A stretch of 64,000 bases of DNA from Spirochaetia bacterium (GCA_965140585.1 OZ223266.1:32001-96000); one strand, 5' to 3'; counted from the stretch's first letter, positions 4,634 to 53,624 are shown. Notes: generated from the letters alone by a model not told the origin. A program made the numbers and translations.

Positions 4634-4660
4634 GGGCCTTCCTTATGGGGGTCCTTTTTT
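4634..4660 (+). terminator. Rho-independent terminator
   Basis: GGGCCTTCC-TTAT-GGGGGTCCT stem (with G-U pairs) followed by a T-run. Confidence 0.7.
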
Positions 4661-4667
4661 ATTAGAA

Positions 4668-4717
4668 TCTCAATTTGAAATTTCAATATGTAATGCAATA
4701 TGAAATGTAAATTGAAA
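4668..4717. promoter_or_regulatory. Putative upstream activator sites for the PrpR-type sigma54 activator
   Basis: Four tandem imperfect TTTCA-N3-TGAAA-like palindromes (TCTCAATTTGAAA, TTTCAATATGTAA, ATGCAATATGAAA, ATGTAAATTGAAA) about 110-160 bp upstream of the -24 box. Confidence 0.55.
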
Positions 4718-4824
4718 ATAAATTTTTAAAAATCGTATCAAGTAATTTCCCCTGAAAAAATTATAAAAGTATAAATCCCCATATAGCAATAAAATAAAAG
4801 TACATGAAATTTTCTTTTAGTTAC

Positions 4825-4840
4825 TGGCACGGTATTTGCA
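4825..4840 (+). promoter_or_regulatory. Sigma54 (-24/-12) promoter
   Basis: TGGCAC-GGTAT-TTGCA is an exact match to the TGGCAC-N5-TTGC consensus, 48 bp before the first operon gene. A sigma54 activator is encoded at the operon end. Confidence 0.88.
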
Positions 4841-4888
4841 ATAAGAACAATACTAATTTAATAGTTTATCTATGGAAGGTGCTATACA

Positions 4889-5767
4889 GTGAATGTAGGG
4901 TTTATAGGCTTTGGTGAAGCAGCATATTATGTTTCTATGGGTCTGAAGGATGAAGGCGTATCCGGAATTGTTGCTTACGATGCAATGCTGGAGCATCCTG
5001 TTGCCGGAAAGAAAATAAAACAAAGAGCACAGGAAAGCCGGGTTAAACTGCTTGTTTCTCCGGCAGATACGGTAGATACGACCGATTTCCTTTTTGTCGC
5101 AGTCCCTGCTGTGAATGCTCAGGATGTATGCAATGAAATTACTCCATTTCTAAAAGCAGGGCAGCTGTATATTGATGTGAGCGCTTCGACACCTAAAGTT
5201 AAAGAATCATTTGAAAAAATGGTAGAGAAATCGGGCGCACTATACGTGGATGCCGCTATGCTTGGTTCTCTTCCTCTGAACAGGCATAAGGTTCCCATAA
5301 CAGCCAGCGGAATCGGCGCTGAAAAATTCAAGGAAATAATGTCCAAGAAGGGTATGAATATCACCTGTGTCGGTTCTCAGGCTGGATCAGCCTCGGCAAT
5401 CAAGCTTATACGAAGTGTTTTCATGAAAGGTATTGCAGCACTCATGCTTGAAATGCTTGAAGGTGCTTATAGGTATGATGTGATCGATGAAGTTGTTTCT
5501 TCTCTCAGTGCATCTATGGATGGTATATCATTTGAAAGTCATTTAAAAAGACTTATTACGGGAACAGCTGTCCATGCAAAGAGGCGAGCCGAAGAATTGA
5601 ACGGCTCGGTTCAAATGCTGATGGATCGGAATGTAGATAATGAAATGGTTAAGGCATCAAAATATAAACATGAATATCTTGCCGAATGTCTATCAGGCGA
5701 ACAGGCGAAGGATGAGTATGAAGACATCCATTCAGTACTTGCTGCCATGAAGACAAAGCCGCAGTAA
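4889..5767 (+). CDS. NAD(P)-dependent oxidoreductase, 6PGDH/3-hydroxyisobutyrate DH-like with DUF1932-type C-terminus
   Basis: GFIGFGEAA Rossmann motif, YVDAAMLG, ASAIKLIRSVFMKG, HAKRRAEE. Confidence 0.82.
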   Translation: MNVGFIGFGEAAYYVSMGLKDEGVSGIVAYDAMLEHPVAGKKIKQRAQESRVKLLVSPADTVDTTDFLFVAVPAVNAQDVCNEITPFLKAGQLYIDVSASTPKVKESFEKMVEKSGALYVDAAMLGSLPLNRHKVPITASGIGAEKFKEIMSKKGMNITCVGSQAGSASAIKLIRSVFMKGIAALMLEMLEGAYRYDVIDEVVSSLSASMDGISFESHLKRLITGTAVHAKRRAEELNGSVQMLMDRNVDNEMVKASKYKHEYLAECLSGEQAKDEYEDIHSVLAAMKTKPQ

Positions 5768-6525: not shown

Positions 6526-7515
6526 ATGAAAAGGATTTTATCATTTTTACTGATCCTTACAGTAAGTGTCGCCCTGATGGTAAGCTGTTCTGCTAAGTCG
6601 GATAAGACTTCAGCGGAAACCACAACGGAAAAAGCGATAAGCGCTGCAGAAAACTGGCCCGAGCAGCCGATCAATATCCTGGTACCGGCTAAAGCAGGAG
6701 GTGGTTCTGATATTATAACAAGAATCATAACAAAATATATTACTCAGGAAACCGGACAGGCTGTTGTCGTAACCAATGTTACCGGGTTATCAGGTTATGA
6801 ACTGGTTCGAAAACAGGAGCCGAATGGATATAATTATGTTTTCGGAATCACTGGTTTGCTCATCTCGGCAGCCCAGGGGCAGCTTGAATTTGGACATGAA
6901 GCATTTGACGCGGCTTTTACGCCGGGTATGGATTCTTCAAATGGTATCCTTGTTCGCGGAGATTCTCCGTATAAGACTCTTAAAGATCTTTTTGATGCGA
7001 TTGAAAAAGATCCGGAAAGCGTAACAGGCGGTATCTCTATGACCGGTTACCCCTATCTTTGTAGTCTCGCTATAGAAGATGCTCTTGATATCGACATGTA
7101 TTGCATTGATGCTGGAAATACATCAGAAAGATCGGTTGCACTCTTGGGCGGTCAGGTAGATTTTATCATTTCAGGTATGGCTGCTATTACCGGATATCTT
7201 GATTCGGGTGATTTTCGATATCTCGCAATTACTGCAGAAGAAAGAAATAAATTCCTTCCCGATGTTCCTACTTTCAAAGAAAGCGGGTATGATTTCGCTT
7301 TTGTAGATCAGGGTGGATATCTTCTCGCTCCTAAGGGTACGGATCCTGCTATTCTCGAGAAATTCAACAAATTATTTTATGAGAAGATTCAGACTAACCC
7401 TGATTATCAGAAGGAAATGTCCAAATTTGGTATGATTGATGTAAAATATACACCAGATGAGCTGAAAGTTGAATTGGATCACGCAGCAGAAGTATTTAAG
7501 AAATACCTGCAATAA
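6526..7515 (+). CDS. tctC: Tripartite tricarboxylate transporter substrate-binding lipoprotein (Bug/TctC)
   Basis: Lipobox LMVSC, WPEQPINILVPAKAGGGSD, PDVPTFKESG, APKGT. Confidence 0.9.
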   Translation: MKRILSFLLILTVSVALMVSCSAKSDKTSAETTTEKAISAAENWPEQPINILVPAKAGGGSDIITRIITKYITQETGQAVVVTNVTGLSGYELVRKQEPNGYNYVFGITGLLISAAQGQLEFGHEAFDAAFTPGMDSSNGILVRGDSPYKTLKDLFDAIEKDPESVTGGISMTGYPYLCSLAIEDALDIDMYCIDAGNTSERSVALLGGQVDFIISGMAAITGYLDSGDFRYLAITAEERNKFLPDVPTFKESGYDFAFVDQGGYLLAPKGTDPAILEKFNKLFYEKIQTNPDYQKEMSKFGMIDVKYTPDELKVELDHAAEVFKKYLQ

Positions 7516-7538
7516 AATAATTTTAAGGGATTTTTGAG

Positions 7539-8090
7539 ATGAAAAGCAAAATTGATAGTTTATTTTATAAGCTGGAAATTTATTTTTCTGCTTATCGGCT
7601 GATAGCACTCGGAATTATAATCGCATTGGTATCTCTTTTCATGTTGAATGAAACATCAGATTATGTTCAAAACGGAGGGCTTAATGTCGTCGATAATGCT
7701 GCTTTTGCTCCGCGCCTGATATTTAGCATTCTTTTTTTACTTGGGATTCTGATTTTTATTCAGGAATTGTTAAGGAATAAAGTCTTGCGAAAAGAGATAC
7801 TTAGCAGCGCCGTGGCAAAAGAAATAGTTGCAGGTAATCAAAAATCCCTGATTGTTCTGGGCAGTATATTGTTATTTATACTGCTCATGACTCAAATCGG
7901 CTTTATTTTGTCTTCAATAATTTATTTGATCTCTAATATGATCATAATGAATTCGAAGGAATCGAGAAATGTGAAAATGTACGCAATAATTGCAGTTATA
8001 GTTGCAGTTATAGTTTATTTTTGTTTTAAAGAATTTATCTATGTAAACCTGCCAATCGGGGCATTGTTTAAAGCAGTGTTGGGGAGATAA
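7539..8090 (+). CDS. tctB: Tripartite tricarboxylate transporter small permease
   Basis: Multiple TM helices, FAPRL and C-terminal VNLPIG. Lies between tctC and tctA. Confidence 0.85.
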   Translation: MKSKIDSLFYKLEIYFSAYRLIALGIIIALVSLFMLNETSDYVQNGGLNVVDNAAFAPRLIFSILFLLGILIFIQELLRNKVLRKEILSSAVAKEIVAGNQKSLIVLGSILLFILLMTQIGFILSSIIYLISNMIIMNSKESRNVKMYAIIAVIVAVIVYFCFKEFIYVNLPIGALFKAVLGR

Positions 8091-8091
8091 T

Positions 8092-9597
8092 ATGTTAGTT
8101 TCAACATTTTTAGGTTTAATGACACCGTTAAATATTACCCTGATGGTAGTTGGTGTAATCGTCGGTATTCTCTTTGGCGCAATTCCCGGATTGAGTTCAA
8201 CCATGGCGATCGCGTTGTTCCTGCCCGTCACCTTTGCGCTAGATGTGACAAGTGCCTTTGCACTTCTTATTGCCCTGTATATAGGCGGTGTTTCCGGGGG
8301 ATTGATTTCAGCTATTCTTATTAATATTCCCGGTTCGGCAATGTCGATAGCCACGACGTATGACGGTTCGCCAATGGCTGTAAAAGGTCATGCCCACAGG
8401 GCACTCGGAATAGGTATCGTTTTCTCAACACTTGGTACTATCGTGAGCCTCATTGTCCTTATTGCCGCTGCTCCTCCTCTTTCAAAGCTTACGATAAAGA
8501 TGAGTTCCTATGATTTCTTTGCGCTGACCCTGCTGTCGTTAACATTGATATCAGGAGTCTCCGGTAAGAATATGCTGCTTGGTTTATTATCCGGATTCAT
8601 GGGGCTTGCCATTGCGATGGTTGGTATCGCACCAATTGATGGAACGCCGCGTTTCACCTTCGGTGAAGTACAGCTGCTTAATGGATTTTCCCTGTTGCCA
8701 TCGGTTATTGGGTTATTTGCCGTAACTGAGATAATGAAGGCTGTCAGCAACGCTGATAAAAAATCGGAAGTAAAGGCTAAACCCGAAAAGGTCAGAGGCT
8801 TTGGGTTCTCTCTCCGGGAGTTTTTTGCTCAGGCAAAGAATTTTGTGATATCTTCTGTCATTGGAATAGTAATTGGATTTCTGCCGGGTATGGGTGGTTC
8901 CCTGGCTAACCAGGTTGCTTACGCGGCGGTGCAGAAGAACTCTAAGTACCCTGAGAAATTCGGAACTGGCATAATGGATGGTATAGTTGCATCGGAGACT
9001 TCGAATAACGCTTCCATAGGAGGCGCAATGATTCCCCTGCTTACGCTTGGTATTCCAGGTGATGGACCGACTGCGATGCTGCTCGGCGCATTTATGATCC
9101 ACGGGATTGTTCCAGGACCGCTTCTGTTTAAAACAAGCGGTTCGCTGGTAAATACAATCTTTGTAGCGTTGATTATATGTACTATTATTATGTTTTTCAT
9201 AGAATATTTCGGCTTACGGCTGTTTGTAAAGGCGTTGAATGTTCCAAAAGGCATACTCCTTCCGATTATACTGGTGCTATGCATTGTCGGTTCATATGCA
9301 AACAACAATAACATGTTTGATGTATGGACATTGCTGCTATTCGGTGTATTCGGTTTTTTGTTGTTTAAGATTGGAATACCAAGAGCACCGTTGGTTCTTG
9401 GCTTTGTTCTGGGGCCGTCAGTCGAAACAAATTTGCGGCGTGCAGTTCAGCACAGCCGGGGATCCATCATCCCTTTTCTGACCAGGCCCGTATGTGTAAC
9501 TTTGCTTACTCTGTGCCTTCTTATCATAGTTTTTGCATTTGTTTCTCAAATAAGGGCAGGTCGGGCAGAGAAGCGTGCAGCAGCTGCCGGAGAATGA
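8092..9597 (+). CDS. tctA: Tripartite tricarboxylate transporter large permease
   Basis: GAIPGL, ILINIPG, ETSNNA..GGAMIPLLTLGIPG. Confidence 0.93.
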   Translation: MLVSTFLGLMTPLNITLMVVGVIVGILFGAIPGLSSTMAIALFLPVTFALDVTSAFALLIALYIGGVSGGLISAILINIPGSAMSIATTYDGSPMAVKGHAHRALGIGIVFSTLGTIVSLIVLIAAAPPLSKLTIKMSSYDFFALTLLSLTLISGVSGKNMLLGLLSGFMGLAIAMVGIAPIDGTPRFTFGEVQLLNGFSLLPSVIGLFAVTEIMKAVSNADKKSEVKAKPEKVRGFGFSLREFFAQAKNFVISSVIGIVIGFLPGMGGSLANQVAYAAVQKNSKYPEKFGTGIMDGIVASETSNNASIGGAMIPLLTLGIPGDGPTAMLLGAFMIHGIVPGPLLFKTSGSLVNTIFVALIICTIIMFFIEYFGLRLFVKALNVPKGILLPIILVLCIVGSYANNNNMFDVWTLLLFGVFGFLLFKIGIPRAPLVLGFVLGPSVETNLRRAVQHSRGSIIPFLTRPVCVTLLTLCLLIIVFAFVSQIRAGRAEKRAAAAGE

Positions 9598-19629: not shown

Positions 19630-20706
19630 ATGAAACAGTATTTTGCTTTGGGTTCATACACTGAACCTATTTTATTCGGCACCGGAGAGGTCTACCAGGG
19701 GCAGGGAAAAGGAATTACTATCTGCTCCTTTGAAAATGGTAAAATTGAAATAGTTAAAGAGATCGAAATCCGCAATCCTTCTTTTCTTTGTATCGATGAA
19801 AAAAATAAAAAGATATACGCAGTAAATGAAATGAAAGAATACCTTGGTGAAGAAGGCGGCGGCCTTACGCAGCTTTCCTATGCTGATGATTTTTCCATGT
19901 CGGTTGAAGGTTCATGGAATACAGGCGGAAAAGATCCCTGTCATCTTGAGATTTCACCTGACTCCAGTTTTATCGCTATATCAAATTTTGCAAGCGGTTC
20001 AGTTACTTTTTTTTCGCTTGAACATGAAGGTAATGTAACGGCTGACAGCAGGGCGATCTTTCAGCATAGCGGAAGCAGCATTCACCCTGTTAGACAGACA
20101 AGGCCTCATGCCCACAGCTGTATATTCAGCCGGGGGAATAATATGCTTTATGTTCCTGATTTAGGTCTGGATAAGGTCGTTGCGTATAAAATTGAAGATA
20201 GTATGATTTCGATGGATGAAACGAAGCTCATTGAAGTTGCCGCCGGCAGCGGGCCCCGTTACGGAGAGTTCACTAAGGACGGGAAGCATTTCTACCTTAT
20301 TAACGAAATCAGTTCCCGGATTATTCATTATACATGTGAAAACGGCACTCTAAATTTTAGACAGGTTGTTGAAACGCTCCCGGATGATTTTAAAGGTGAC
20401 AACATCTGTTCCGATCTCCATCTTACACCGGATGGAACAAAACTTTATGCTTCCAACAGAGGTCATGACAGTATTGTAAGCTATGAGATCAACAGTTCCG
20501 GTGAACTTACTCTGACAGGCAGAACACCCTGCGGAGGTAAAACTCCCAGGAATTTTGCAGTAGATCCGGCCGGAACTCATCTTCTGGTTGGTAACCAGGA
20601 CAGTGATTTGATTACCGTATTCAGAATTACTTCTGACGGGCAGCTTGAAAAATTGATTGATTGGGATACGGGTTCACCTGTCTGCATCAAGTTTTTTAAT
20701 CCATAG
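19630..20706 (+). CDS. pgl: 6-phosphogluconolactonase / beta-propeller lactonase
   Basis: GSYT, NPSFL, PCH, PHAH, PDLGLD, GSGPR, SNRGHDSI, GKTPRNF. Confidence 0.88.
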   Translation: MKQYFALGSYTEPILFGTGEVYQGQGKGITICSFENGKIEIVKEIEIRNPSFLCIDEKNKKIYAVNEMKEYLGEEGGGLTQLSYADDFSMSVEGSWNTGGKDPCHLEISPDSSFIAISNFASGSVTFFSLEHEGNVTADSRAIFQHSGSSIHPVRQTRPHAHSCIFSRGNNMLYVPDLGLDKVVAYKIEDSMISMDETKLIEVAAGSGPRYGEFTKDGKHFYLINEISSRIIHYTCENGTLNFRQVVETLPDDFKGDNICSDLHLTPDGTKLYASNRGHDSIVSYEINSSGELTLTGRTPCGGKTPRNFAVDPAGTHLLVGNQDSDLITVFRITSDGQLEKLIDWDTGSPVCIKFFNP

Positions 20707-20730
20707 AAATCCTATAACAAGGAGAAAAAT

Positions 20731-21497
20731 ATGCTTAAACTCAAAACTACGGGTAAATACGATTTAATTTGCCAGGCTAGTATAGGTGTGCGCATCACCC
20801 CTGCAGACAGACTTCCGGTTCATACAAGCCGGATGTTTCAGATGCAGTCAACCAGTGCCGAAAGCAATGTTCTAAATGTCTCTGCAGCACTTGGGCTTCG
20901 GACCAAGGGGCTGACTGCCTTTGTTAAGGACAGTCCGGTTTCCCGGTTTGTCAAAAGTGAGCTGCGTTTCCGCAATGTGGAATTTGAAGGACCTGAGGTA
21001 GAGTAGGACGGGCCCTGGGGAGTGAGGCCCCAGTTTAATATTGCCGACACCGGCTACGGTTTACGAGGGCCCCGGGTCTGGAACGACAGAGCCGGTGAAG
21101 TAGGAAGAACTTTAAATATCAAAGATTTTGATACAAAGAAAAATTTTCAGGAGGAAGGTGTAAAAATTCTTCATCTTTCAGGGCCTATTGCTGCAATGAG
21201 TACCGAAACTACTGAGTTCTGTCTCGAACTTGCGAGAGCAGCCGGAAAAAGCGGTACTCTTATTTCCTTTGATTTTAATTTCAGAGCTTCGTTCTGAAAG
21301 GGCCGGAAGCCGGCGGTGACGGCTTTGTTGCCGGACTTCTTTATGCTATTCTTAGAAACTGGAGTGAAGATGAGTGGATGCAGTTCGGCTTGGCTACCGG
21401 CGTTCTTGCCGCGTCAGTTCTGGATGATTACGGAACTCCGGCTGATGAAGAGCAGGTCTGGAGCATATACAAGGGCAATGCCAGGGTAAAGAGGTGA
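20731..21497 (+). pseudogene. kdgK: PfkB-family 2-keto-3-deoxygluconate kinase-like, disrupted
   Basis: SAESNV, in-frame TAG at 21004, DFNFRASF then TGA at 21295. After a frameshift/deletion comes GGDGFVAGLLY...GNARVKR*. Confidence 0.8.
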
Positions 21498-21500
21498 TTT

Positions 21501-22955
21501 ATGAAAAAAGCTGATATTGGTCTTATCGGTCTCGCTGTTATGGGTGAGAATCTGGTGATGAATATGGAATCAAAGGGATTCACCGCCGTAGTTTATAATC
21601 GTACCACAAGTAAGGTTGATGACTTTGTTAACGGCAGGGCCAGGGGGAAAAACATTATTGGAACACATAGTCTTTCCGAGCTGGCAGATAATCTTGCAAA
21701 ACCCAGGAAAGTAATGATGATGGTTAAGGCCGGTAAGCCGGTTGATGAACTTATAGACCAGCTTCTGGAAGTCGTTGAACCGGGTGATATTATCATTGAC
21801 GGAGGCAACAGCCACTTTTCCGACACAATCAGAAGAACCGAATATGTAGAAAGTAAGGGGCTTTATTATATAGGAAGCGGTGTTTCAGGCGGTGAAGAGG
21901 GTGCTTTAAAGGGTCCGAGCATAATGCCCGGCGGCAGCCCGTCGGCCTGGCCGTCAGTTAAGCCCCTCCTTCAGGCAATTTCTGCAAAAGTAGAAGACGG
22001 GTCGCCATGCTGCGACTGGGTCGGTGAAAACGGGGCCGGTCATTTTGTAAAGATGGTTCATAACGGTATTGAGTACGGTGATATGCAGATAATCTGCGAG
22101 GCCTATCAGCTTATGAAAGACCTGCTTGGAATGAGTGCCGATGAGATGCATGAGGTGTTTAAGCAGTGGAATGAAACTGAACTTGACAGCTACCTCATCG
22201 AAATAACCCGCGATATTCTTGCATACAAGGATACTGACGGAAAACCTATAGTAGATAAAATACTTGATACGGCAGGGCAGAAGGGAACAGGTAAGTGGAC
22301 CGGTATTACAGCGCTTGATGAAGGCGTTCCCCTGACGCTGATTGGTGAGAGTGTTTTCAGCCGCTGCCTGTCGGCTATCAAGGATGAGCGTGTTAAAGCT
22401 GCACAGGAGTATTCTGGAAAGCAGAAATCAGTATTCAGCGGTGACCGGAAGCAGTTTATTGCTGATATTAAAAGTGCACTGTATGCGTCGAAGATTATTT
22501 CATACGCTCAGGGTTACAGTCTTATGAGAACAGCTGCTGCCACATACAAATGGAACCTCAATTACGGCGGCATTGCTCTCATGTGGCGGGGCGGATGTAT
22601 AATAAGGTCTGTATTTCTGGGTAAGATTAAAGAGGCCTTCGACAGTAATCCGGAACTTACAAACCTTCTGCTTGATCCCTACTTTAAGGGAGTGATGGAA
22701 TCGCTTCTTGAACCATGGCGCAGGGTTGTTTCCCAGGCTGTGCTTTGCGGTGTTCCGGTGCCTGCATTTGCAGCGGCCTTGTCCTACTTTGACGGTTATA
22801 CATGTGAACGTCTCCCTGCAAATCTGCTTCAGGCACAGAGGGATTATTTCGGCGCCCATACCTACGAAAGGCTTGATGAAGTACGGGGAAAGTTTTTTCA
22901 TACAAACTGGACCGGGCACGGCGGAAGCACCTCTGCTTCCACATACAATGTTTAA
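21501..22955 (+). CDS. gndA: 6-phosphogluconate dehydrogenase, decarboxylating (NADP+)
   Basis: IGLIGLAVMG, GVSGGEEGA, KMVHNGIEY, QKGTGKW, QAQRDYFGAHTY. Confidence 0.97.
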   Translation: MKKADIGLIGLAVMGENLVMNMESKGFTAVVYNRTTSKVDDFVNGRARGKNIIGTHSLSELADNLAKPRKVMMMVKAGKPVDELIDQLLEVVEPGDIIIDGGNSHFSDTIRRTEYVESKGLYYIGSGVSGGEEGALKGPSIMPGGSPSAWPSVKPLLQAISAKVEDGSPCCDWVGENGAGHFVKMVHNGIEYGDMQIICEAYQLMKDLLGMSADEMHEVFKQWNETELDSYLIEITRDILAYKDTDGKPIVDKILDTAGQKGTGKWTGITALDEGVPLTLIGESVFSRCLSAIKDERVKAAQEYSGKQKSVFSGDRKQFIADIKSALYASKIISYAQGYSLMRTAAATYKWNLNYGGIALMWRGGCIIRSVFLGKIKEAFDSNPELTNLLLDPYFKGVMESLLEPWRRVVSQAVLCGVPVPAFAAALSYFDGYTCERLPANLLQAQRDYFGAHTYERLDEVRGKFFHTNWTGHGGSTSASTYNV

Positions 22956-22959
22956 CGTT

Positions 22960-24201
22960 ATGACAAATACAGAAATCAAAAATCAAATTGAGTTATTTCT
23001 TGCATCGCAGGGAGAACTCAAAAGAGTTCTCCTTGTAGGGCCGGATTTTACCCGTTATTTTTCAAATGCGGGGTATATATGCAACTATGCCTACCACTGG
23101 CTTGTAGAGCGGGGCTGTGAAGTAAAAATACTTGAAGCCCTTGGAACCCATGTTGCAATGACTGAAGAAGAACTCAGTGAAATGTACGGAGATATTCCAC
23201 ACTCCTGTTTTGTAGTTCATGACTGGAGAAATGATGTTGAAACCATCGGTGAGGTGCCCGCTACTTTTTTAAGTGAGGTTACCGACGGAATCTGGACTGA
23301 AGGCATATCGGTACAGGTTAACAGGCTTGTCCTTGACCCCTCGTTTGACCTGATACTTTCTGTAGGACAGGTCGTTCCGCATGAAGTAATAGGTATGGCA
23401 AACCATGCGAAAAATCTCTTTGTCGGGGTCGGCGGAGCAGACATGATCAATAAGAGCCATATGGTCGGGGCGGTATACGGAATGGAAAAGATGATGGGCA
23501 AGGATTTTACCCCGGTACGGAAGGTATTTGACTATGCCCTTGATAAGTTTCTGTCCGAACTTCCGATATGGTTTGCTCTCACAGTTTGTACTGCACCGGA
23601 GGGTGATATTGAAACTCATGGTTTTTTCATAGGCAACACCAGAAAAGTTCTGGAAGACGCGGTAGCTCTGTCGCAGGAGAAGAATATTGATTTCGTTGAT
23701 CACGGCATACAGAAATGTGTTGTATATCTTGATCCGAAAGAGTTTAAAAGCACCTGGCTTGGAAACAAGAGTATATACCGTACCCGCATGGCCATTGCCG
23801 ATGGGGGCGAACTGCTGGTTCTTGCCCCCGGAGTTGATAGGTTCGGTGAGGATCCGCAGAATGATGAGCTTATCAGAAAATATGGATACCGGGGGCGTGT
23901 ACATACCCTGGAAGAGTTCAAGAACAACAGCGATCTTGCAGGGAACGCCGGAGTTGCCGCCCATCTTATACACGGTTCATCCGATGAGAGGTTTTCAATT
24001 ACCTACGCGGTGAAGAATATAACCGAGAAGGAAATTGATGATATCGGATTTAAAAGTACATCCTATGATGAGATGGTTAAAATCTATAATCCGGAAAAAC
24101 TTGTCTACGGCTATAACAAAATGCCCGATGGTGAAGTTATTTACTTCATTCCAAACCCGGCTTTGGGGCTGTGGATTAACCGGGAGAAGTTTGAGGGTTG
24201 A
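22960..24201 (+). CDS. LarA (lactate racemase)-family nickel-pincer enzyme, likely sugar-acid 2-epimerase (gluconate/mannonate type)
   Basis: PDFTR, ALGTH, HDWR, VVPHEVIG..NHAK, STWLGNK...TRMAIADGG. Sugar-acid context. The upstream ORF extension overlapping gnd was ignored. Confidence 0.8.
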   Translation: MTNTEIKNQIELFLASQGELKRVLLVGPDFTRYFSNAGYICNYAYHWLVERGCEVKILEALGTHVAMTEEELSEMYGDIPHSCFVVHDWRNDVETIGEVPATFLSEVTDGIWTEGISVQVNRLVLDPSFDLILSVGQVVPHEVIGMANHAKNLFVGVGGADMINKSHMVGAVYGMEKMMGKDFTPVRKVFDYALDKFLSELPIWFALTVCTAPEGDIETHGFFIGNTRKVLEDAVALSQEKNIDFVDHGIQKCVVYLDPKEFKSTWLGNKSIYRTRMAIADGGELLVLAPGVDRFGEDPQNDELIRKYGYRGRVHTLEEFKNNSDLAGNAGVAAHLIHGSSDERFSITYAVKNITEKEIDDIGFKSTSYDEMVKIYNPEKLVYGYNKMPDGEVIYFIPNPALGLWINREKFEG

Positions 24202-24288: not shown

Positions 24289-24317
24289 TTGACAGCTGGC
24301 TTCTTTTCCTGTACCTT
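24289..24317 (+). promoter_or_regulatory. Putative sigma70 promoter
   Basis: TTGACA-N17-TACCTT upstream of the Moco-type RNA leader. Confidence 0.55.
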
Positions 24318-24361
24318 GTTTGCAAGTTCCTGAGAACTATCAATACATGATTATTTAATTC

Positions 24362-24470
24362 GGCTCCGAGCACTCTTATCCTAAAAACTGTAAACCTTAC
24401 AGTTCATTCAGGGATATTGTGCCGATAGGGTTCTGCCGGAAACAGCAGAGCCTCCCGTATTGGAAAGGAG
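24362..24470 (+). ncRNA. Moco RNA motif (molybdenum-cofactor riboswitch candidate, P3-containing)
   Basis: CTCCGAG...CCTAA...AGGGT...GAAA...GCCTCCC...TGGAAAGGAG pattern. P1 CTCC/GGAG pairs with the RBS. P2 GCAC/GTGC plus TATCCT/AGGGATA. P3 AACTGTAA/TTACAGTT. P4 GGGTTCTGC/GCAGAGCCT with a GAAA tetraloop. Confidence 0.82.
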
Positions 24471-24477
24471 AGAAAGA

Positions 24478-25587
24478 ATGTGCCTCAAAAAAAGAATTAT
24501 ATTAATTCTATTAATCACATTTTTGCCAATGACGATGCTGTCCGCCGCAGGGCAGCAGGAAACCACGACCGCTGATGAAGCAGTATCCGAAACACGAACT
24601 GTGACCGACATGAAAGGCAATGAAATAATTCTGCCTGTTCAGGGTACCAGATATGCTGTCCTCGGAGGACCAATAAGCCTCACACCCTACCTTTTTGGTG
24701 TTCAGGAAGATGTAATTGCTGTAACCAAAGGTCCCCAGAAGATGCGGATGATGCAGATTATGGATCCCGGCATAGTTAATAAACCGGCTCCACGTACCAC
24801 AAATGGAAATGTTAATGTTGAAGAACTTCTTATGTCCGATCCGGACTGTGTTATCAGTTTTGAAGTTGACGGTCAGATTGTAGTTGATCACACAGATATT
24901 CCGGTTATTTTTCTTACCGGTTCGATGGGCGACGGTTTTGAAGAAATTAAAAACGAAGTTCGTTTTTTCGGCGGAGTATTTCAGAATGCAGAAAAGGCTG
25001 AAGAGTACTGCAGTTACATGGACAGTACCCTGGCACTGATTGATGAAAGGCTGAAAGATATCAAGGAAGCAGATTTTCGCTCCGTTTATCTTGGTGAAGG
25101 ACTTAAGCATCTTGATATTCTAGGCGGCGATACCTTCATGAATGAATGGCTTAATGCTGCTCATTGTAAGAATGCATCCTTTGATATTCTTACTGCTGAA
25201 GGAAAAGAGGGTGATCTTCATTCAGGATTCCGTGAGATTTCGATGGAACAGGTTCTTGCTTCCGACCCTGAAATAATTATTATCAATGAAGGCAAACCTG
25301 AAGACTTAACACAGGATCCCAGGTGGAATGAGATAACCGCAGTAAAGGATGGCCGCGTATTTATGGCTCCCAGCGGACTCTTTGTATGGAGCCGTCCGTC
25401 AATCGAATCCGCAGTTCTGTATCCTCTGTGGATAGCCTTTCAGGTTTACCCGGAATATTTTGCAGACCTTTCTCTAGAAGATGAGTTCACAAAGTTCTAT
25501 AACGAAATGTTTAACTTTAATATTGAGCCCGAGGTTGTTAAAGCCGTAATTTCAGGTGCCTTCAGTTCAAACTTCAATCCTTTTTAG
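24478..25587 (+). CDS. Type II ABC transporter substrate-binding protein (Fe-siderophore/cobalamin/MolA class)
   Basis: Signal peptide ...AAGQQE, TVTDMKG, NVEELLMSDPD, SMEQVLASDPE, AVKDGRVF. Confidence 0.87.
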   Translation: MCLKKRIILILLITFLPMTMLSAAGQQETTTADEAVSETRTVTDMKGNEIILPVQGTRYAVLGGPISLTPYLFGVQEDVIAVTKGPQKMRMMQIMDPGIVNKPAPRTTNGNVNVEELLMSDPDCVISFEVDGQIVVDHTDIPVIFLTGSMGDGFEEIKNEVRFFGGVFQNAEKAEEYCSYMDSTLALIDERLKDIKEADFRSVYLGEGLKHLDILGGDTFMNEWLNAAHCKNASFDILTAEGKEGDLHSGFREISMEQVLASDPEIIIINEGKPEDLTQDPRWNEITAVKDGRVFMAPSGLFVWSRPSIESAVLYPLWIAFQVYPEYFADLSLEDEFTKFYNEMFNFNIEPEVVKAVISGAFSSNFNPF

Positions 25588-25595
25588 GCATTAAT

Positions 25596-26633
25596 GTGGA
25601 TAAACTGTTAAAAAAGGAAAAATGGGGAGTATTGCATTACAGGCAGATAATTATTATTTCGTCTTTAGTATTGTTTGCCGTAATTCTGACCGCTCTTTGC
25701 CTCGGGCGGTACAGAATATCCCCGCCTGAAGTTTTTAAAATTCTACTATATAAACCCTTTGCTTCTGAGCCATCGTGGTCTAAAAATGTAGAGACTGTTA
25801 TCTTTCAGGTAAGGCTGCCCAGAATTATAGCAGGCTTTCTTGTCGGAGCAGGGCTTTCCCTTGCAGGGGCCAGTCTGCAGTCGATGTTTAAAAACCCGCT
25901 GGTTTCCTCACAGATCCTCGGCGTGGCCTCCGGAGCCGGTTTCGGCGCCGCAATTGCAATCCTTCTGTTTGAAAGCATAATAATCACGCAGATATCATCC
26001 TTTGTTTTCGGCCTTGCAGCAGTTGGGTTGACATGGCTCTTAAGCCGCAGAAAATCTGTAACTCCAGTCATACTGCTTGTCCTATCCGGTGTGGTTGTCG
26101 GCAGTTTATTCTCCTCTATGACATCAATGGTGAAATATCTTGCCGATCCGATGAACAAGATGCCGGCAATTGTATTCTGGCTGCTGGGGTCTCTTAATCA
26201 TGTTAATGTAAATGAGCTGCGACTTCTGGGGCCTGTAATGATAGTTTCGGGCGGGATGCTGCTTCTTATCAGGTGGCGTTTGAATATTCTTACAATGGGT
26301 GATGAATCCGCTAAAGCTCTTGGGGTGAATACAGAGCAGCTGAAGGTTATAGTCATAATATGCTCTACTTTGCTAACTGCTTCATCTGTCTGCCTTTGCG
26401 GAATAATCGGTTGGGTGGGTCTGGTCATTCCCCATATAGGAAGGCTGATTGCCGGCCCGGATAACCGAAGACTGCTGCCGATTTGTGTTCTTGTGGGCGG
26501 GGCTTTCATGATCATTGTGGATACCATAGCAAGGACTGCGACCGAGACTGAGATTCCGCTTGGTGTGCTTACGTCTGTAATAGGTGCTCCAATCTTTTCA
26601 ACATTATTGCTGAGAAAGGAGACAGGATGGTAG
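25596..26633 (+). CDS. FecCD/BtuC/MolB-family ABC permease
   Basis: VRLPRI, FKNPLVS..LGVASGAGFG, GDESAKALG, GWVGLVIPH, EIPLG. Confidence 0.9.
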   Translation: MDKLLKKEKWGVLHYRQIIIISSLVLFAVILTALCLGRYRISPPEVFKILLYKPFASEPSWSKNVETVIFQVRLPRIIAGFLVGAGLSLAGASLQSMFKNPLVSSQILGVASGAGFGAAIAILLFESIIITQISSFVFGLAAVGLTWLLSRRKSVTPVILLVLSGVVVGSLFSSMTSMVKYLADPMNKMPAIVFWLLGSLNHVNVNELRLLGPVMIVSGGMLLLIRWRLNILTMGDESAKALGVNTEQLKVIVIICSTLLTASSVCLCGIIGWVGLVIPHIGRLIAGPDNRRLLPICVLVGGAFMIIVDTIARTATETEIPLGVLTSVIGAPIFSTLLLRKETGW

Positions 26634-27436
26634 GAACATCTGAAGCAGTCAGGATAAGTGTTCAGAACCTGACTTTTAACTATGGGGACAAAGCGGCTGA
26701 TGTTTTCAGGGATGTCAGCTTTGATATTATTGAGGGGGATGTTATATCCCTTCTGGGCCCGAACGGCACAGGGAAATCGACACTGCTGAAATGTATTGCC
26801 GGTGTTCTTGATTCGCATGGACGTATTTTTCTTGACGGAAAGGATGTTGATGAAATGCATCATAATGCAATTGCTGCAAAGATTGCCTATGTACCGCAGA
26901 CCCAGGTTTCACCCTTTCCATATCCTGTTAAAGAGATAGTAATGATGGGCCGGGCATCCCACCTTGGTCTTTTTTCATCTCCCGGCATGCATGATGAAGA
27001 TATCTGCAATGAAGCTATGAAGCGGGTAGGGATTGAATATCTTGCAGACCGCCCCTGTACAAGAATAAGCGGTGGTGAGTGGCAGCTGGTTCTGATAGCC
27101 CGGGCAATTGCTCAGGAGTCGGGAATCCTGCTTCTTGATGAACCCACCTCTCACCTGGATCTTGGGAATCAGATGAGAATTCTTGAAACTATAAATAGTC
27201 TATCAGTAGCAGGCTTCACAATTATGGTAGCTACTCATTTTCCTGATCATGCTCTGCTTACTTCAAACAGGGCTGCCATTCTTAAAGACGGTCGGCTCTC
27301 GGATTTATTGGAACCTGAGAAAATAATCACGGAAGATATGATTGCAAGGACATATGGTGTTGATGTAAAGATAATTCAGCATGAAAGTCTTGGTAAAAGA
27401 AAAATGATTGTACCAATGTTAAAGGAGAAAGTATGA
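26627..27436 (+). CDS. ABC transporter ATP-binding subunit
   Basis: GPNGTGKS, ISGGE, LLLDEPTSHLD, ATHFPDH (MolC-like THxPxH). Confidence 0.92.
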   Translation: MVGTSEAVRISVQNLTFNYGDKAADVFRDVSFDIIEGDVISLLGPNGTGKSTLLKCIAGVLDSHGRIFLDGKDVDEMHHNAIAAKIAYVPQTQVSPFPYPVKEIVMMGRASHLGLFSSPGMHDEDICNEAMKRVGIEYLADRPCTRISGGEWQLVLIARAIAQESGILLLDEPTSHLDLGNQMRILETINSLSVAGFTIMVATHFPDHALLTSNRAAILKDGRLSDLLEPEKIITEDMIARTYGVDVKIIQHESLGKRKMIVPMLKEKV

Positions 27437-28197
27437 TAGTTGATAAAATAATAGAGCAGGCGACAGAAAGAGCACTTAAAGGCGGCCAGACTTTGAAACG
27501 GCTGGTAGTAGGTGTCAAATATCTCGGGGTTGAGCTTTCAGACGGAAGCTGCGGATTGGCATTCCGCTTTGATCCGGATCCCTTCCATTTTATTGCAAAG
27601 AAATCCGGATCAGATGAGTATGATAAACTTCCCCTTACGACCCTTATAGGTTTTGCCGCCGATAACAGATCGCTTTTAAGATCCGGTATTGGAATTGCCG
27701 TAATTAACGCGCTTACTCCGTGGGAAGAAATGCAGAGCCCGGAAAAGAAGGATTCTGCCGAGGCTGCCGGAATAAAAGATGGTGATGTAGTCGGTATGGT
27801 CGGGTTTTTTCCGCCGCTGGTAAAGATGCTTGAAAAAAGAGATGTTGATCTACGTGTTTTTGAACGCTCAGTTCATCAGCCTCATCCTTATCTCTACCCT
27901 GACTGGGCTGAGCACAGACTCCTGCCCGAATGTGATGTTGTCATACTTACCGGAACCTCCTGTATTAATGGGACAATTGATCAGCTTCTTGACTACTGCT
28001 CAAATGCAAGACAGGTAAGCGTTACCGGACCCTCCACTCCCATGTATCCGAAAGCCTTTGCCGGTACGAATGCTACAATACTTGCCGGGGCAAAATATAA
28101 GGAAGATGAGAAAGAAGAGTTATTCAAGGCATTATCGCTTGGTTACTGCGGTTCAGAGACTCTTAACTATATGGATAAGTTTGCCTGGCGGCTGTAG
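27433..28197 (+). CDS. DUF364-family protein (enolase-N-like plus Rossmann-like)
   Basis: GIAVINAL, VGMVGFF.PL, VFER, LLPECDVVILTGTSCINGTIDQLL, TGPSTP. Confidence 0.82.
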   Translation: MIVDKIIEQATERALKGGQTLKRLVVGVKYLGVELSDGSCGLAFRFDPDPFHFIAKKSGSDEYDKLPLTTLIGFAADNRSLLRSGIGIAVINALTPWEEMQSPEKKDSAEAAGIKDGDVVGMVGFFPPLVKMLEKRDVDLRVFERSVHQPHPYLYPDWAEHRLLPECDVVILTGTSCINGTIDQLLDYCSNARQVSVTGPSTPMYPKAFAGTNATILAGAKYKEDEKEELFKALSLGYCGSETLNYMDKFAWRL

Positions 28198-28238: not shown

Positions 28239-29357
28239 TCAGGGTTGTAGTATACTAATTATTTCCTGAAGAGGGCAGGCTTCAATTATACCGGTTAAAG
28301 GAAATTGTTCCTTAACGGGGTAGATGATGTACAACTTTTCAAGTGAAAGATCGTTTATTGCAATATGCATCGATTTTGTTGTTTTAGGTGCTTCAGAAAA
28401 TTTAAATTCCAGACCGATTTTCTTTCCGTCTTTTTGGAGAAATAAATCAATTTCTGCGCCGCTGTATGTCGACCAGAAATTCGGAACAACGCTCGGTGAA
28501 GTCTTGAGAACCTGTTCCATGGCAAAGCCTTCCCATGAGGCGCGCCAAGGGCCGGATGGCTTAGAAGTGTATTCTTGTCGTTGATTCCCAGTAAGTGATG
28601 CAGCAATCCTGAGTCGGTAAAATAGATTTAGGTGATTTTACCTGACGTTTTTTTAAATTTTCAAACCAGGATTGAAGAGGTCTAATCATGTATGTCGCGC
28701 TTAGTATATCAATATACTATCTGATGGTTTTATCGCTCATACCCATTGAGCCTGCAAGCTGTGAACTGTTAAGCAGCTGACCATTGCTGTGAGCAAGCAT
28801 AGTCCAGAAACGCCGAAGGGCTGTAGATGGAATAATAATTCCCAGCTGCGGAATATCCCTTTCAAGAAAGGTCCGGATGAATCCCTCTCTCCAGGACAGG
28901 CTGTCCTCTTCTGTTTTGGAAAGAAAAGACAGCGGGAATCCGCCTCACAGCCAAAGTTGTTCTAAACTGCCTGTTCCTGTTTCAGATAAGTTGAGACCAT
29001 GCAGATCAATGAATTCAATTCTGCCGGCAAGTGATTCTGAAGTCCTTTTAACAAGTGAAGGAGAGGCTCTTCCTATAATCAGAAATCTTCCATTCTCAGC
29101 TGTTTTGTCAGCCAGTACTCTATCTGTATTTCATCTATAATAATCAGTCCGTGGAGATTTGAAAGATAAAGTTCCGGATTCTGCATTTTATCCATGTCTG
29201 TAGGTGATTCCAGATCCAGAAAATGTGATTCGACCTGCTGTGCGATTTCTCTGGCCAGTGTAGTTTTTCCGAACTGACGCGGGCCCAGCAGCGCTGTGAT
29301 TCTGGATCTTTTTAATGCCCGATAACTCTGCTCCTTATATGCAGTCCGCTCAATCAT
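28239..29357 (-). pseudogene. AAA_14/DUF4143 ATPase, multiply frameshifted
   Basis: GPRQFGKTT and IIIDEIQ at the 5' end. GAEIDL...GLEFKFSEAP at the 3' end. The middle is spread over several frames. Confidence 0.85.
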
Positions 29358-29364
29358 ATCTAAT

Positions 29365-29411
29365 ATTATCTTTGAATATTCGGAGTGTTGATCCGGATTT
29401 TCAAGAATAAA
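29365..29411. repeat. 47-bp direct repeat, copy 2
   Basis: ATTATCTTTGAATATTCGGAGTGTTGATCCGGATTTTCAAGAATAAA, immediately upstream of the AAA ATPase start. Confidence 0.9.
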
Positions 29412-29429
29412 CATGGCGATGTATTGAAT

Positions 29430-35475: not shown

Positions 35476-36686
35476 TTATGCGGGTTTTTCAGTGAGCCAG
35501 AGGGGTAAATGTTTATGTTCGATACCGTTGCGGCTTAAATCAATCGGGTCCATACTTAAAACAAATTTGGGATAGTTATCCTCTATAATTTCGAGCGGCC
35601 TGAACTCCCTTTCTATTGTCTCGGGTGATGAAAGCAGATAACAAACCTGTATATATATCCTTGAATTGTTTTTTTCAGCAACAAAATCAATTTCATAATT
35701 TCCGATGTATCCGACAGTAATAGTGTAATGTCTTCTTCTAAGTTCTATATAGACAATGTTTTCCAGCAGAGAGCCTATATCCTGTGTTTTTCTGCGAGGT
35801 ACGGTATTCCTGAGTCCGTGATCATTAACGAATATCTTCTCGTTAATCTCAAGAATTCTTCTGTCTCTCAGATCATGGCGTTTTACATGATGGATTACAA
35901 AACAGGATTCCAGATATGAAGCGTAGTTCTGAGTGGTTTCCACTCCTACTGCTATTTTTTGAGATTTACAGTAATCAGCTATACGTTTAGCGGTGAAAAG
36001 GTTGCTGATATTATCAAAAAAGTAATAAATAATTTTTTCAAGAAGTGCTGTATTACGGATGGAATATCTTTCAATGATGTCTTTAAGCACAATGGTATTA
36101 TGGATAGAATCGATAATCTGTATTTTAACAGTTTCTTCGTCTGCGATATGATAAAGTACCGGCAATCCTCCATAGATTAGATAATTTTGGAAAATCTCCT
36201 GAGCGTGTTTTTGCCCGGTGATTGACAGGTGCTCATTATATGAAAAAGGTAGAATTTCCAATTGAACATACCTTCCGCTTAGCCTTGTTGCAAGTTCCCC
36301 CGAAAGTAATTCTGAATTTGCCCCTGTTATATAAATGTCCCAGTCTTTCTCTTTGTGGGGGCTGCTATTACCTTTTCCCATTCGCTGATATTCTGGATTT
36401 CATCAATCAGCAGGAATTTGTATCCGGATAAAGCCTGAAAGGGCTTTAATTTTTCTACTAAGTCTTTGTGGTCTGTTAATTCGATATTCTCAAGTGAGTC
36501 ACATTCCAGGAAAATACAGTTCTCAACTGCAACGACGCTGCTTTCGATAACGAAATCAGCCCATTGTCGTAAGATTGTACTTTTTCCGGTTCGTCTCATC
36601 CCTGTGATAACTTTAATAACCGGAGTTTTTATCCAGGATTTGAGTTGATTAAAGTAATCAGTACGGATTATTTCTGTTTCTTTCAT
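35476..36686 (-). pseudogene. AAA_14/DUF4143 ATPase with a single frameshift near 36360
   Basis: GMRRTGKS and LIDEIQ in 36327..36686. ITGANSELLSGE, GGLP and EIDFVAE in 35476..36381. The shift falls in a G5 run and could be a sequencing indel. Confidence 0.8.
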
Positions 36687-53068: not shown

Positions 53069-53368
53069 CTTTATATTCTCCCTGTTGAAAATCTGTTGTA
53101 AAAAGTAATGCTTGACTGTTGCTAAACATCAGCGAGACTTTAATCACTTTTGATAGCTATGGTAAATTCTATGATTTAGTTTCGGGAAAGCAAGAAAAAA
53201 TTATTTTTTCCAAGTTTTGTGTTTAATTATAATATCAGAAAGATAGTCTGTACGATGCATATCTATTGTGCAATTCCACATGAAACATGCTTTTATAGCC
53301 ATTGATGACTCAATAATTTCTCATAGATTAATACTCCGGCTTGATAACAGTCTCTTTTTATGAGATTA

Positions 53369-53516
53369 TACACTGTACATTTCAATGGAAGCGAGGTGTA
53401 AATCCTCCGCGGACCCGCCACTGTAATTGGCATTAGTCCCGTCTATACCACTGTGCGCAAGCATGGGAAGGTTCGGGATATCCGGATATGCCATAAGTCA
53501 GGAAACATTGGTGTAA
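53369..53516 (+). ncRNA. Cobalamin riboswitch
   Basis: GGAA, T-loop hairpin GAGGTGTAAATCCTC, CCCGCCACTGTAA, CCACTG...GGGAAG and B12-box AAGTCAGGAAAC. Lies upstream of btu genes. Confidence 0.9.
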
Positions 53517-53624
53517 CACCCAACTTTATTATTTGGCTTCGAGGACTGAGCCGGATTTACCTGATACTATTTTTCGTATAACTAGTAAGGTATTCTCCGC
53601 TTTTCCTTTGAAAAGGAGAAACAA

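Follow-up and report, generated by a model that had tools for sequence, protein, structure and literature searches.

What does a FecCD-type importer carry when its operon is led by an RNA of the molybdenum cofactor (Moco) family? The question is raised by a locus in a 64,000-nucleotide (nt) stretch of the genome of a Spirochaetia bacterium (GCA_965140585.1 OZ223266.1:32001-96000), the whole of which we call the window. At positions 24289–28197, a leader RNA is followed by four genes for a substrate-binding protein, a FecCD-type permease, an ATPase, and a protein of the DUF364 family. A first-pass annotation, made from the sequence alone, had read the leader as a Moco RNA and proposed an ATP-binding cassette (ABC) importer of oxyanions, of a metallophore complex, or of an intact pterin cofactor. 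We found that the RNA belongs to the P3-less subclass of its family, that the closest characterized relative of the transporter is MolABC of Haemophilus influenzae, and that the arrangement recurs in at least three phyla. Our favored reading, held with moderate confidence, is that the operon would encode a riboswitch-repressed MolABC-type importer of tungstate or molybdate whose DUF364 partner would act on the imported metal in the cytoplasm.

We scanned the whole window against Rfam and obtained two matches above threshold. One of them was the Moco RNA motif, RF01055, at 24352–24486 on the plus strand, with 62.0 bits against a gathering score of 36 (E = 1.7e-12); the covariance-model search that the first-pass annotation had named as the check on its Moco RNA claim thus returned a significant match. 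The alignment covered model positions 1–135, the full length of the family, and the window RNA contained all of the helices P1, P2, P4, and P5. As the annotation had described, the 5′ strand of P1, CUCC (24364–24367), pairs with GGAG (24467–24470), P4 is capped by a GAAA-type loop (GGAAAC, of the GNRA type), and the RNA ends in UGGAAAGGAG. The GGAG is the Shine–Dalgarno sequence of the first gene as well as the 3′ strand of P1, and it is the predicted expression platform of a translational OFF switch. The start codon of the first gene is the ATG at 24478, 7 nt after the GGAG, and the TTG at 24460 that our open reading frame (ORF) lister had chosen falls within the aptamer.

The P3 hairpin that the annotation had seen turned out to be a different element. 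The P3 columns of the model were deleted in the alignment of the window RNA, and the perfect hairpin at 24388–24402 comes from 12 inserted nt that extend the loop capping P2. The free-energy fold of the leader reproduced P2 with its hairpin extension as well as P4, and a script counted a single hairpin between P1 and P4. With only one hairpin present and the P3 columns deleted, the window RNA is a genuine RF01055 member of the P3-less subclass. The argument for molybdenum over tungsten, which had relied on the P3 stem, loses its basis. According to Regulski 2008, P3-less Moco RNAs correlate with tungsten-cofactor genes, and the Moco RNA of Escherichia coli blocks translation when the cofactor is made. 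A possible promoter, TTGACA with a 17-nt spacer and a weak –10 hexamer TACCTT, can be read from the sequence at 24289–24317 (+) and is a weak candidate: the promoter scan, which required at least four of six matches per hexamer, did not list the TTGACA at 24289, and neither the promoter scan nor the terminator scan rose clearly above the shuffled background.

The four plus-strand genes behind the leader carried the Pfam domains that the annotation had assigned to them. The first (24478–25587) encodes a MolA-like periplasmic substrate-binding protein of 369 amino acids (aa) with a signal peptide and no lipobox (Peripla_BP_2, 74.4 bits), the second (25596–26633) a MolB-like type II permease of 345 aa (FecCD, 291 bits), and the third (26627–27436) a MolC-like ABC ATPase of 269 aa (ABC_tran). 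The fourth (27433–28197) encodes a 254-aa protein, predicted to be cytoplasmic, in which both the DUF364 domain (PF04016, 118.2 bits against a cut-off of 23) and the DUF4213 domain (PF13938, 45.9 against 23.5) scored above cut-off. The permease, ATPase, and DUF364 genes overlap successively by 7 and 4 nt, which suggests that their translation is coupled. None of the four proteins reached an NCBIfam cut-off (e.g., BtuC with 222 bits against 461), the DUF364 protein had no NCBIfam match, and Pfam identified no exporter or other chelator-biosynthesis gene among the operon genes. Given the signal peptide of the binding protein and a TonB-dependent receptor elsewhere in the window, the host appears to be two-membraned.

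To place the transporter, we compared its permease, ATPase, and binding protein with all solved structures. The best relative of the permease was HI1471 (MolB, 2nq2_A) with 244.8 bits, 79 bits above the next, a heme permease with 166.2 bits, while BtuC reached 131. The ATPase was likewise closest to HI1470 (MolC, 2nq2_C; 139.9 bits), at a margin of approximately 10 bits over unrelated ABC ATPases. As a single sequence, the binding protein matched 4ovk, 4pag, and then, in third place, MolA (HI_1472) at 2.8e-15. We then built a family profile from 20 proteins, comprising the window protein, 18 from the DUF364 loci surveyed below, and the one from a second importer of the host. The profile scored 4ovk at 231, 4hn9 at 218, MolA at 190 (5e-55), and 4pag at 162 bits, followed by nickel and iron binders at approximately 120 and by siderophore, heme, and B12 binders at no more than 77 (BtuF, 66). 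As ligands are not given for 4ovk, 4hn9, and 4pag, MolA is the closest characterized relative. The FecCD gene behind a cobalamin riboswitch of the window served as a control and showed a flat ranking (HmuU 131, BhuU 125, MolB 124).

With a permease closest to MolB, an ATPase closest to MolC, and a class III binding protein of the MolA subgroup, we classify the transporter on sequence grounds as a MolABC-type type II importer. According to Rice 2014, the type II importer MolBC-A brings in molybdate in vivo as a low-affinity complement to ModABC, both molybdate and tungstate are bound by MolA, and the factor linking molybdate to mol transcription in Haemophilus is described as unidentified. Among the cargoes that the first-pass annotation had left side by side, the kinship with MolABC favors an oxyanion, and salvage of a pterin appears unlikely.

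The gene content of the host bears on the same choice. Its genome (4.85 Mb in 10 contigs, 98.5% complete) contains six RF01055 matches. Besides the window operon, the RNAs stand before tupABC-like genes with two moeA, moaA, moaC, and a MoaB/Mog-type gene; before a ferredoxin and an aldehyde:ferredoxin oxidoreductase (AOR, a tungsten enzyme); before genes for an SBP_bac_8 protein, an Oxidored_molyb-domain protein, and a fused permease (L007, G000:C9:526400-535600); before an SBP_bac_11 protein and a second Peripla_BP_2-FecCD-ABC_tran importer (L008, G000:C1:58300-66000); and before an NAD-type aldehyde dehydrogenase (L009, G000:C7:202000-210800; gene at 7103–8551, minus strand). P3 was absent in five of the six, including the RNA before ferredoxin and AOR, and the sole RNA with a P3 was the tup/moa leader, which has a 45-nt insertion. 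The genome further contains eight AFOR_N genes, three PF00384 genes, one modA, and a single DUF364 gene. The moaA, moaC, and moeA genes, the AFOR_N genes, and tupABC with modA together imply that the host makes its own molybdopterin, uses tungsten heavily, and has classical oxyanion transporters; as judged from its genes, it is not a cofactor auxotroph. The first-pass annotation had asked whether hosts of such operons lack moaA and moaC, and the argument for salvage loses this premise, since moaA, moaC, moeA, and tupABC all lie behind another Moco RNA.

Two of the other host loci suggest related functions. The permease of the second importer also had MolB as its best relative (225.6 against 173.8 bits), and the first gene of that locus encodes a 440-aa SBP_bac_11 protein of the ModA fold with no evident signal peptide and a 180-aa N-terminus without an assigned domain; this protein may be a cytoplasmic oxyanion binder in the place that DUF364 holds in the window operon. 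The P3-less RNA before the aldehyde dehydrogenase could be a switch that turns off a tungsten-free enzyme when the tungsten cofactor, and hence AOR, is available.

To study how often the arrangement recurs, we aligned 18 DUF364 proteins, found 412 relatives in contigs from one genome per species, and examined the best 80. RF01055 was present in 39 of the 80 genomes (29 of 40 plus 10 of 40), and according to coordinate mapping and cmscan, 21 of the 80 loci have a Moco RNA on the same strand, 0.1–5.8 kb ahead of DUF364. The upstream matches all covered the full model at 116–128 nt. P3 was absent from the three of these RNAs whose alignments were printed, and our script found a single hairpin in all 13 copies that had the anchors; 11 further copies were without them. 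The order of RNA, Peripla_BP_2, FecCD, ATPase, and DUF364 seen in the window was found in 10 of the 21 RNA-led loci (10 of 80 overall), so that the co-occurrence survey that the annotation had called for yielded recurrent cases. These loci come from Spirochaetales, Peptococcales, two Atribacterota, Alkalibaculum, Clostridiaceae, and other Bacillota, and the count includes L051, in which the ATPase was not recovered by ORF calling.

The remaining RNA-led loci fell into several other layouts. A shortened form was found in two loci with identical DUF364 proteins (L036 and L038). A second layout, consisting of FMN_bind, Oxidored_molyb, DUF364, FmdE, Oxidored_molyb, FecCD, ATPase, and Peripla_BP_2, was found in five Clostridia loci (L033, L028, L032, L035, and L034); we ran Pfam on L033 only and matched the other four to its proteins with phmmer, L034 ends at a contig edge, and FmdE was not recovered in L035. 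Two loci had an ABC_cobalt and phosphodiesterase set, and one was cut after two Oxidored_molyb genes. In L090, from a Thermodesulfobacteriota metagenome-assembled genome (MAG), the Moco RNA is followed by DUF364, a DUF364-like gene, and a type I (BPD_transp_1) ABC pair. This locus contains four Moco RNAs within 10 kb (L090:2960-12382), one of them before an outer-membrane channel of the Alginate_exp type and one directly before DUF364.

Lipoproteins with an Oxidored_molyb fold were observed behind P3-less Moco RNAs in transporter operons both of the host (L007) and of the second layout (L033:2282-3412 and 4655-5152). Sulfite-oxidase-type enzymes need a cysteine as molybdenum ligand. The lipobox cysteine is the sole cysteine in the L007 protein and in the small L033 protein, and these two are therefore without the molybdenum-ligand cysteine; the large L033 protein has two cysteines.

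FecCD genes lay beside DUF364 in 28 of the 80 loci. With Pfam run on 48 neighbors in 15 of the other DUF364 loci, we found NifX-like Nitro_FeMo-Co proteins near DUF364, accompanied by ParA/NUBPL P-loop Fe-S ATPases in L024 and L052, a MobA-like and MoCF_biosynth pair together with a second DUF364 in L062, and a gene of the quinolinate phosphoribosyltransferase (QRPTase) fold, which we take to resemble ModD, adjoining DUF364 in L070. We also inferred a quick maximum likelihood tree for 77 DUF364 proteins with Shimodaira–Hasegawa-like approximate likelihood ratio test (SH-aLRT) support. A branch with 95% support separates all 24 importer-linked proteins of the first layout, together with nine others, from the rest. 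The second-layout proteins formed a clade of their own with 100% support. The window protein falls within the importer-linked subfamily.

A second search started from the permease, for which we examined the 80 closest (43–61% identity) of 589 relatives, including many methanogens, Desulfobacula, Syntrophomonas, and Chloroflexi. Searched with an nhmmer profile built from the known RNAs, 19 of the 80 loci gave a match, and in 17 of the 19 an upstream copy was confirmed by Rfam; the matches in L145 and upstream in L138, not confirmed by Rfam, were dropped. No Rfam Moco RNA was found in 11 nhmmer-negative permease loci used as controls. The RNA and DUF364 were both present in 5 of the 80, and homologues of AOR, MoeA, MoaA, and TupA were found among the other permease neighbors. 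In one Chloroflexi MAG, two tandem Moco RNAs (59 and 46 bits; L121:2881-3314) precede a MolB-like importer with a DUF364 gene on either side. We also searched 30 relatives of the host. One genome from the same family has a close orthologue of the binding protein (69% identity) with the RNA directly upstream, and a genome of the same genus (99% complete) gave no match to the binding protein at E ≤ 1e-20. The distribution is patchy.

The DUF364 protein itself aligned with the solved structures 3npg (72 bits) and 3l5o (Dhaf4260; 51.5 bits), and its nearest relatives, one of them from a Spirochaetales MAG, are 51–77% identical. In a pairwise alignment with the offset set by hand, the Dhaf4260 pocket residues Gly129, Glu148, Thr174, and Thr182 appear to be kept in the window protein and Asp180 appears to be replaced by Asn. 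On this evidence, the protein would retain the proposed pocket in its Gly-rich loop, in the acidic residue that follows strand 2, and at the Thr positions. A cysteine is nearly invariant in the family alignment. The only characterized member, Streptomyces Orf5 (methyl-azetidinecarboxylate synthase), cyclizes methylated S-adenosylmethionine (SAM). Miller 2010 expected the DUF364 pocket to take flavin- or pterin-like ligands, proposed chelator synthesis, and described gene neighborhoods with iron, tungsten, vanadium, and molybdenum transporters. A 2024 preprint reports co-fitness with nifH in Methanococcus for a mod operon that includes DUF364, and it leaves room for polar effects. The apparently kept adenosyl-type pocket and the relative that cyclizes a SAM derivative indicate that DUF364 is probably an adenosyl-compound-binding enzyme rather than a passive carrier. 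The role of cytoplasmic acceptor or processing enzyme, which the first-pass annotation had given it, is plausible.

Our favored reading combines these observations as follows. When cofactor, proposed to be the tungsten cofactor (Tuco), is plentiful, P1 would form, hide the GGAG of the first gene, and switch translation off; when cofactor is scarce, the operon would be translated and the extra importer made. The first three products would assemble into a type II ABC importer of the FecCD fold that moves tungstate, and probably molybdate, from the periplasm to the cytoplasm, working beside the TupABC and ModA-type systems of the host. DUF364, presumably made in step with the ATPase, would then bind, activate, or hand on the imported metal toward MoeA-dependent insertion into molybdopterin. 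For the RNA ligand, the importer cargo, and the whole DUF364 step, the scheme states what we infer. The ligands Moco and Tuco are reportedly too labile for routine in-line probing. An additional route for tungstate uptake is the likeliest function of the operon, ahead of cofactor salvage.

Several observations weigh against this reading. Coupling is not obligatory: the closest permease loci had a same-strand DUF364 in 14 of 80 cases and one on the other strand in three more, and the counts from both searches show that RNA, importer, and DUF364 are often, and not always, linked. In a Spirochaetales MAG (L012), a DUF364 protein 60% identical to that of the window occurs in a locus without importer or Moco RNA, adjoining ZIP and Na/H-exchanger genes and with GTP cyclohydrolase I nearby. 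Type II importers usually carry bulky ligands. The solved proteins 4ovk and 4hn9, with no ligand assigned, are closer to the binding-protein profile than MolA, and outside close kin the binding proteins of the module are only 19–29% identical to that of the window, so that the cargo could differ between clades. The adenosyl-type pocket and the SAM-derivative cyclase would be more expected of an enzyme with an organic substrate than of a chaperone for oxyanions. The affinity of MolA for oxyanions is low (Rice 2014), and the rule that P3-less RNAs signify tungsten is a correlation from 2008 (Regulski 2008), not a measured specificity.

In a rival reading, the importer would carry tungsten or molybdenum in bound form, as a thio-metalate or a metal chelate (metallophore), and DUF364 would either free the metal or make the chelator from a SAM-derived block. 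Chelates are the typical cargo of type II importers, and the low affinity of MolA for the free oxyanion points the same way. On the side of the enzyme, DUF364 appears to have kept the conserved adenosyl-type pocket, a cysteine is nearly invariant in its alignment, the one characterized member uses a SAM derivative to yield an azetidine amino acid, and chelator synthesis has been proposed (Miller 2010). We nevertheless regard a bound metal as unlikely: the operon has no exporter or other chelator-biosynthesis gene, the nearest characterized relative of the transporter carries the free oxyanion, and DUF364 also occurs with mod and tungstate transporter genes in the literature and with the type I BPD_transp_1 transporter of L090.

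We consider it quite improbable that the cargo is a pterin cofactor, whole or partly assembled, or an organic complex of tungsten, and that DUF364 is an adenosyl-cofactor-dependent processing enzyme. If true, this would be the first cofactor or metallophore salvage route for tungsten or molybdenum, parallel to B12 salvage, and the cysteine-poor Oxidored_molyb-fold lipoproteins of the sister operons would be extracellular pterin binders. The stricter proposal of direct salvage of an intact pterin cofactor or precursor (molybdopterin, cyclic pyranopterin monophosphate, Moco, or Tuco), with DUF364 as acceptor or processing enzyme in the manner of BtuCDF for B12, is in our judgment very improbable. 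A riboswitch that is OFF at high cofactor would suit salvage no less than metal uptake, and flavin- or pterin-like ligands have been predicted for the DUF364 pocket (Miller 2010). Sister operons behind P3-less RNAs, moreover, encode lipoproteins of the molybdopterin-binding Oxidored_molyb fold; in two of the three examined, the sole cysteine is that of the lipobox. Against salvage, the host makes molybdopterin, a different Moco RNA leading its moaA, moaC, two moeA, and a MoaB/Mog-type gene; MolABC is the system closest to all three transporter proteins, and BtuF and BtuC are distant from them; and DUF364 also pairs with the type I transporter of L090. We know of no case in which pterin cofactors, which are very oxygen-labile, serve as free environmental nutrients. 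That the operon is an ordinary iron-siderophore, heme, or B12 type II importer with an incidental RNA match is hardly credible, even if Pfam gives only the generic Peripla_BP_2 and FecCD and the top-ranked NCBIfam models are those for BtuC, FecC, and a corrinoid ATPase, and we rejected the iron-siderophore identity given the RNA match (E = 1.7e-12) with the Shine–Dalgarno sequence of the first gene within P1, the kinship with MolABC, NCBIfam scores far below the curated cut-offs (BtuC 222 against 461), siderophore, heme, and B12 binders at no more than 77 bits on the family profile against 190 for MolA, and the presence of the same RNA before relatives of the transporter in many genomes.

The window locus and dozens like it suggest that MolABC-type importers belong regularly to the P3-less Moco-RNA regulon of anaerobes and that one subfamily of the uncharacterized DUF364 proteins is tied to them. 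DUF364 gains a testable setting, namely the handling of metal between uptake and cofactor insertion, and the routine annotation of such operons as iron-siderophore transporters is corrected. MolABC, the Moco riboswitches, and a loose link of DUF364 to molybdenum, tungsten, iron, and vanadium transporters are already in print, and nothing in them is overturned. We did not find in print the recurrent combination of P3-less Moco RNA, MolABC-type importer, and a DUF364 subfamily of its own; our literature search, which had supplements (including the tables of Regulski 2008, which may list cases) outside its scope, found no description of a Moco RNA before a FecCD-type importer with DUF364. A 2025 tungsten paper describes the discrimination of tungsten from molybdenum by cells as unexplained, and its introduction names only TupABC, WtpABC, and ModABC as transporters of the two metals.

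The genes flanking the operon look unrelated to it. Upstream, at 19630–24201, lies a sugar-acid cluster encoding a seven-bladed lactonase, a 6-phosphogluconate dehydrogenase, and a nickel-pincer (LarA-type) putative hexonate epimerase (NF052594, 607 bits against a cut-off of 500). Just downstream are fragments of an AAA_14/DUF4143 ATPase gene (28239–29414, minus strand), of which a longer copy is found at 35476–36381 (minus strand), and a gene for a Crp/Fnr-type regulator. The second Rfam match of the window is a cobalamin riboswitch at 53329–53528 (76 bits). The region from there to 62185 contains a TonB-dependent receptor, a Peripla_BP_2 gene split in two ORFs, a short FecCD gene covering profile positions 1–248 of 311, a partial ABC_tran, and CbiZ, and it resembles a locus for B12/cobinamide salvage that frameshifts have disrupted.

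Compared with known systems, the leader resembles the P3-less "Tuco" subclass in the main-text passages of Regulski 2008, with a full-length match above threshold, a GAAA-type P4 loop, and no P3, and it resembles the E. coli moaA leader, as described there, in having the Shine–Dalgarno sequence within P1. It departs from the P3-less class in its extra 12-nt insertion, which forms a hairpin at the tip of P2, and the gene class that it controls, a FecCD-type importer with DUF364, is not named in those main-text passages, the supplements being outside our scope. The DUF364 protein shares the two-domain DUF4213 and DUF364 architecture of Dhaf4260 (3L5O) and 3NPG, and unlike Dhaf4260 it appears to have Asn for the conserved Asp180. 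It differs from Orf5 in standing beside a metal importer rather than in a natural-product cluster. BtuCDF is also a type II ABC importer under a cofactor-sensing riboswitch and offers an analogy for the regulatory logic, but it is far more distant in sequence (BtuC 131 against MolB 245 bits; BtuF 66 against MolA 190). TupABC, WtpABC, and ModABC share the presumed cargo and the same kind of riboswitch control, the host tupABC lying behind a Moco RNA; they are type I systems with BPD_transp_1 permeases and PBP_like_2 or SBP_bac_11 binding proteins, whereas the window importer consists of FecCD and Peripla_BP_2 components. The operon differs from Haemophilus MolABC in being led by a P3-less Moco RNA, in carrying a DUF364 gene, and in its host, a tungsten-rich, anaerobe-type genome with eight AOR-family genes, where the cargo is assigned by kinship. 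With H. influenzae MolABC (HI1472, HI1471, and HI1470) the importer nonetheless shares the three-part architecture and, as Rice 2014 describe for Haemophilus, the position of a second route parallel to a classical oxyanion ABC system.

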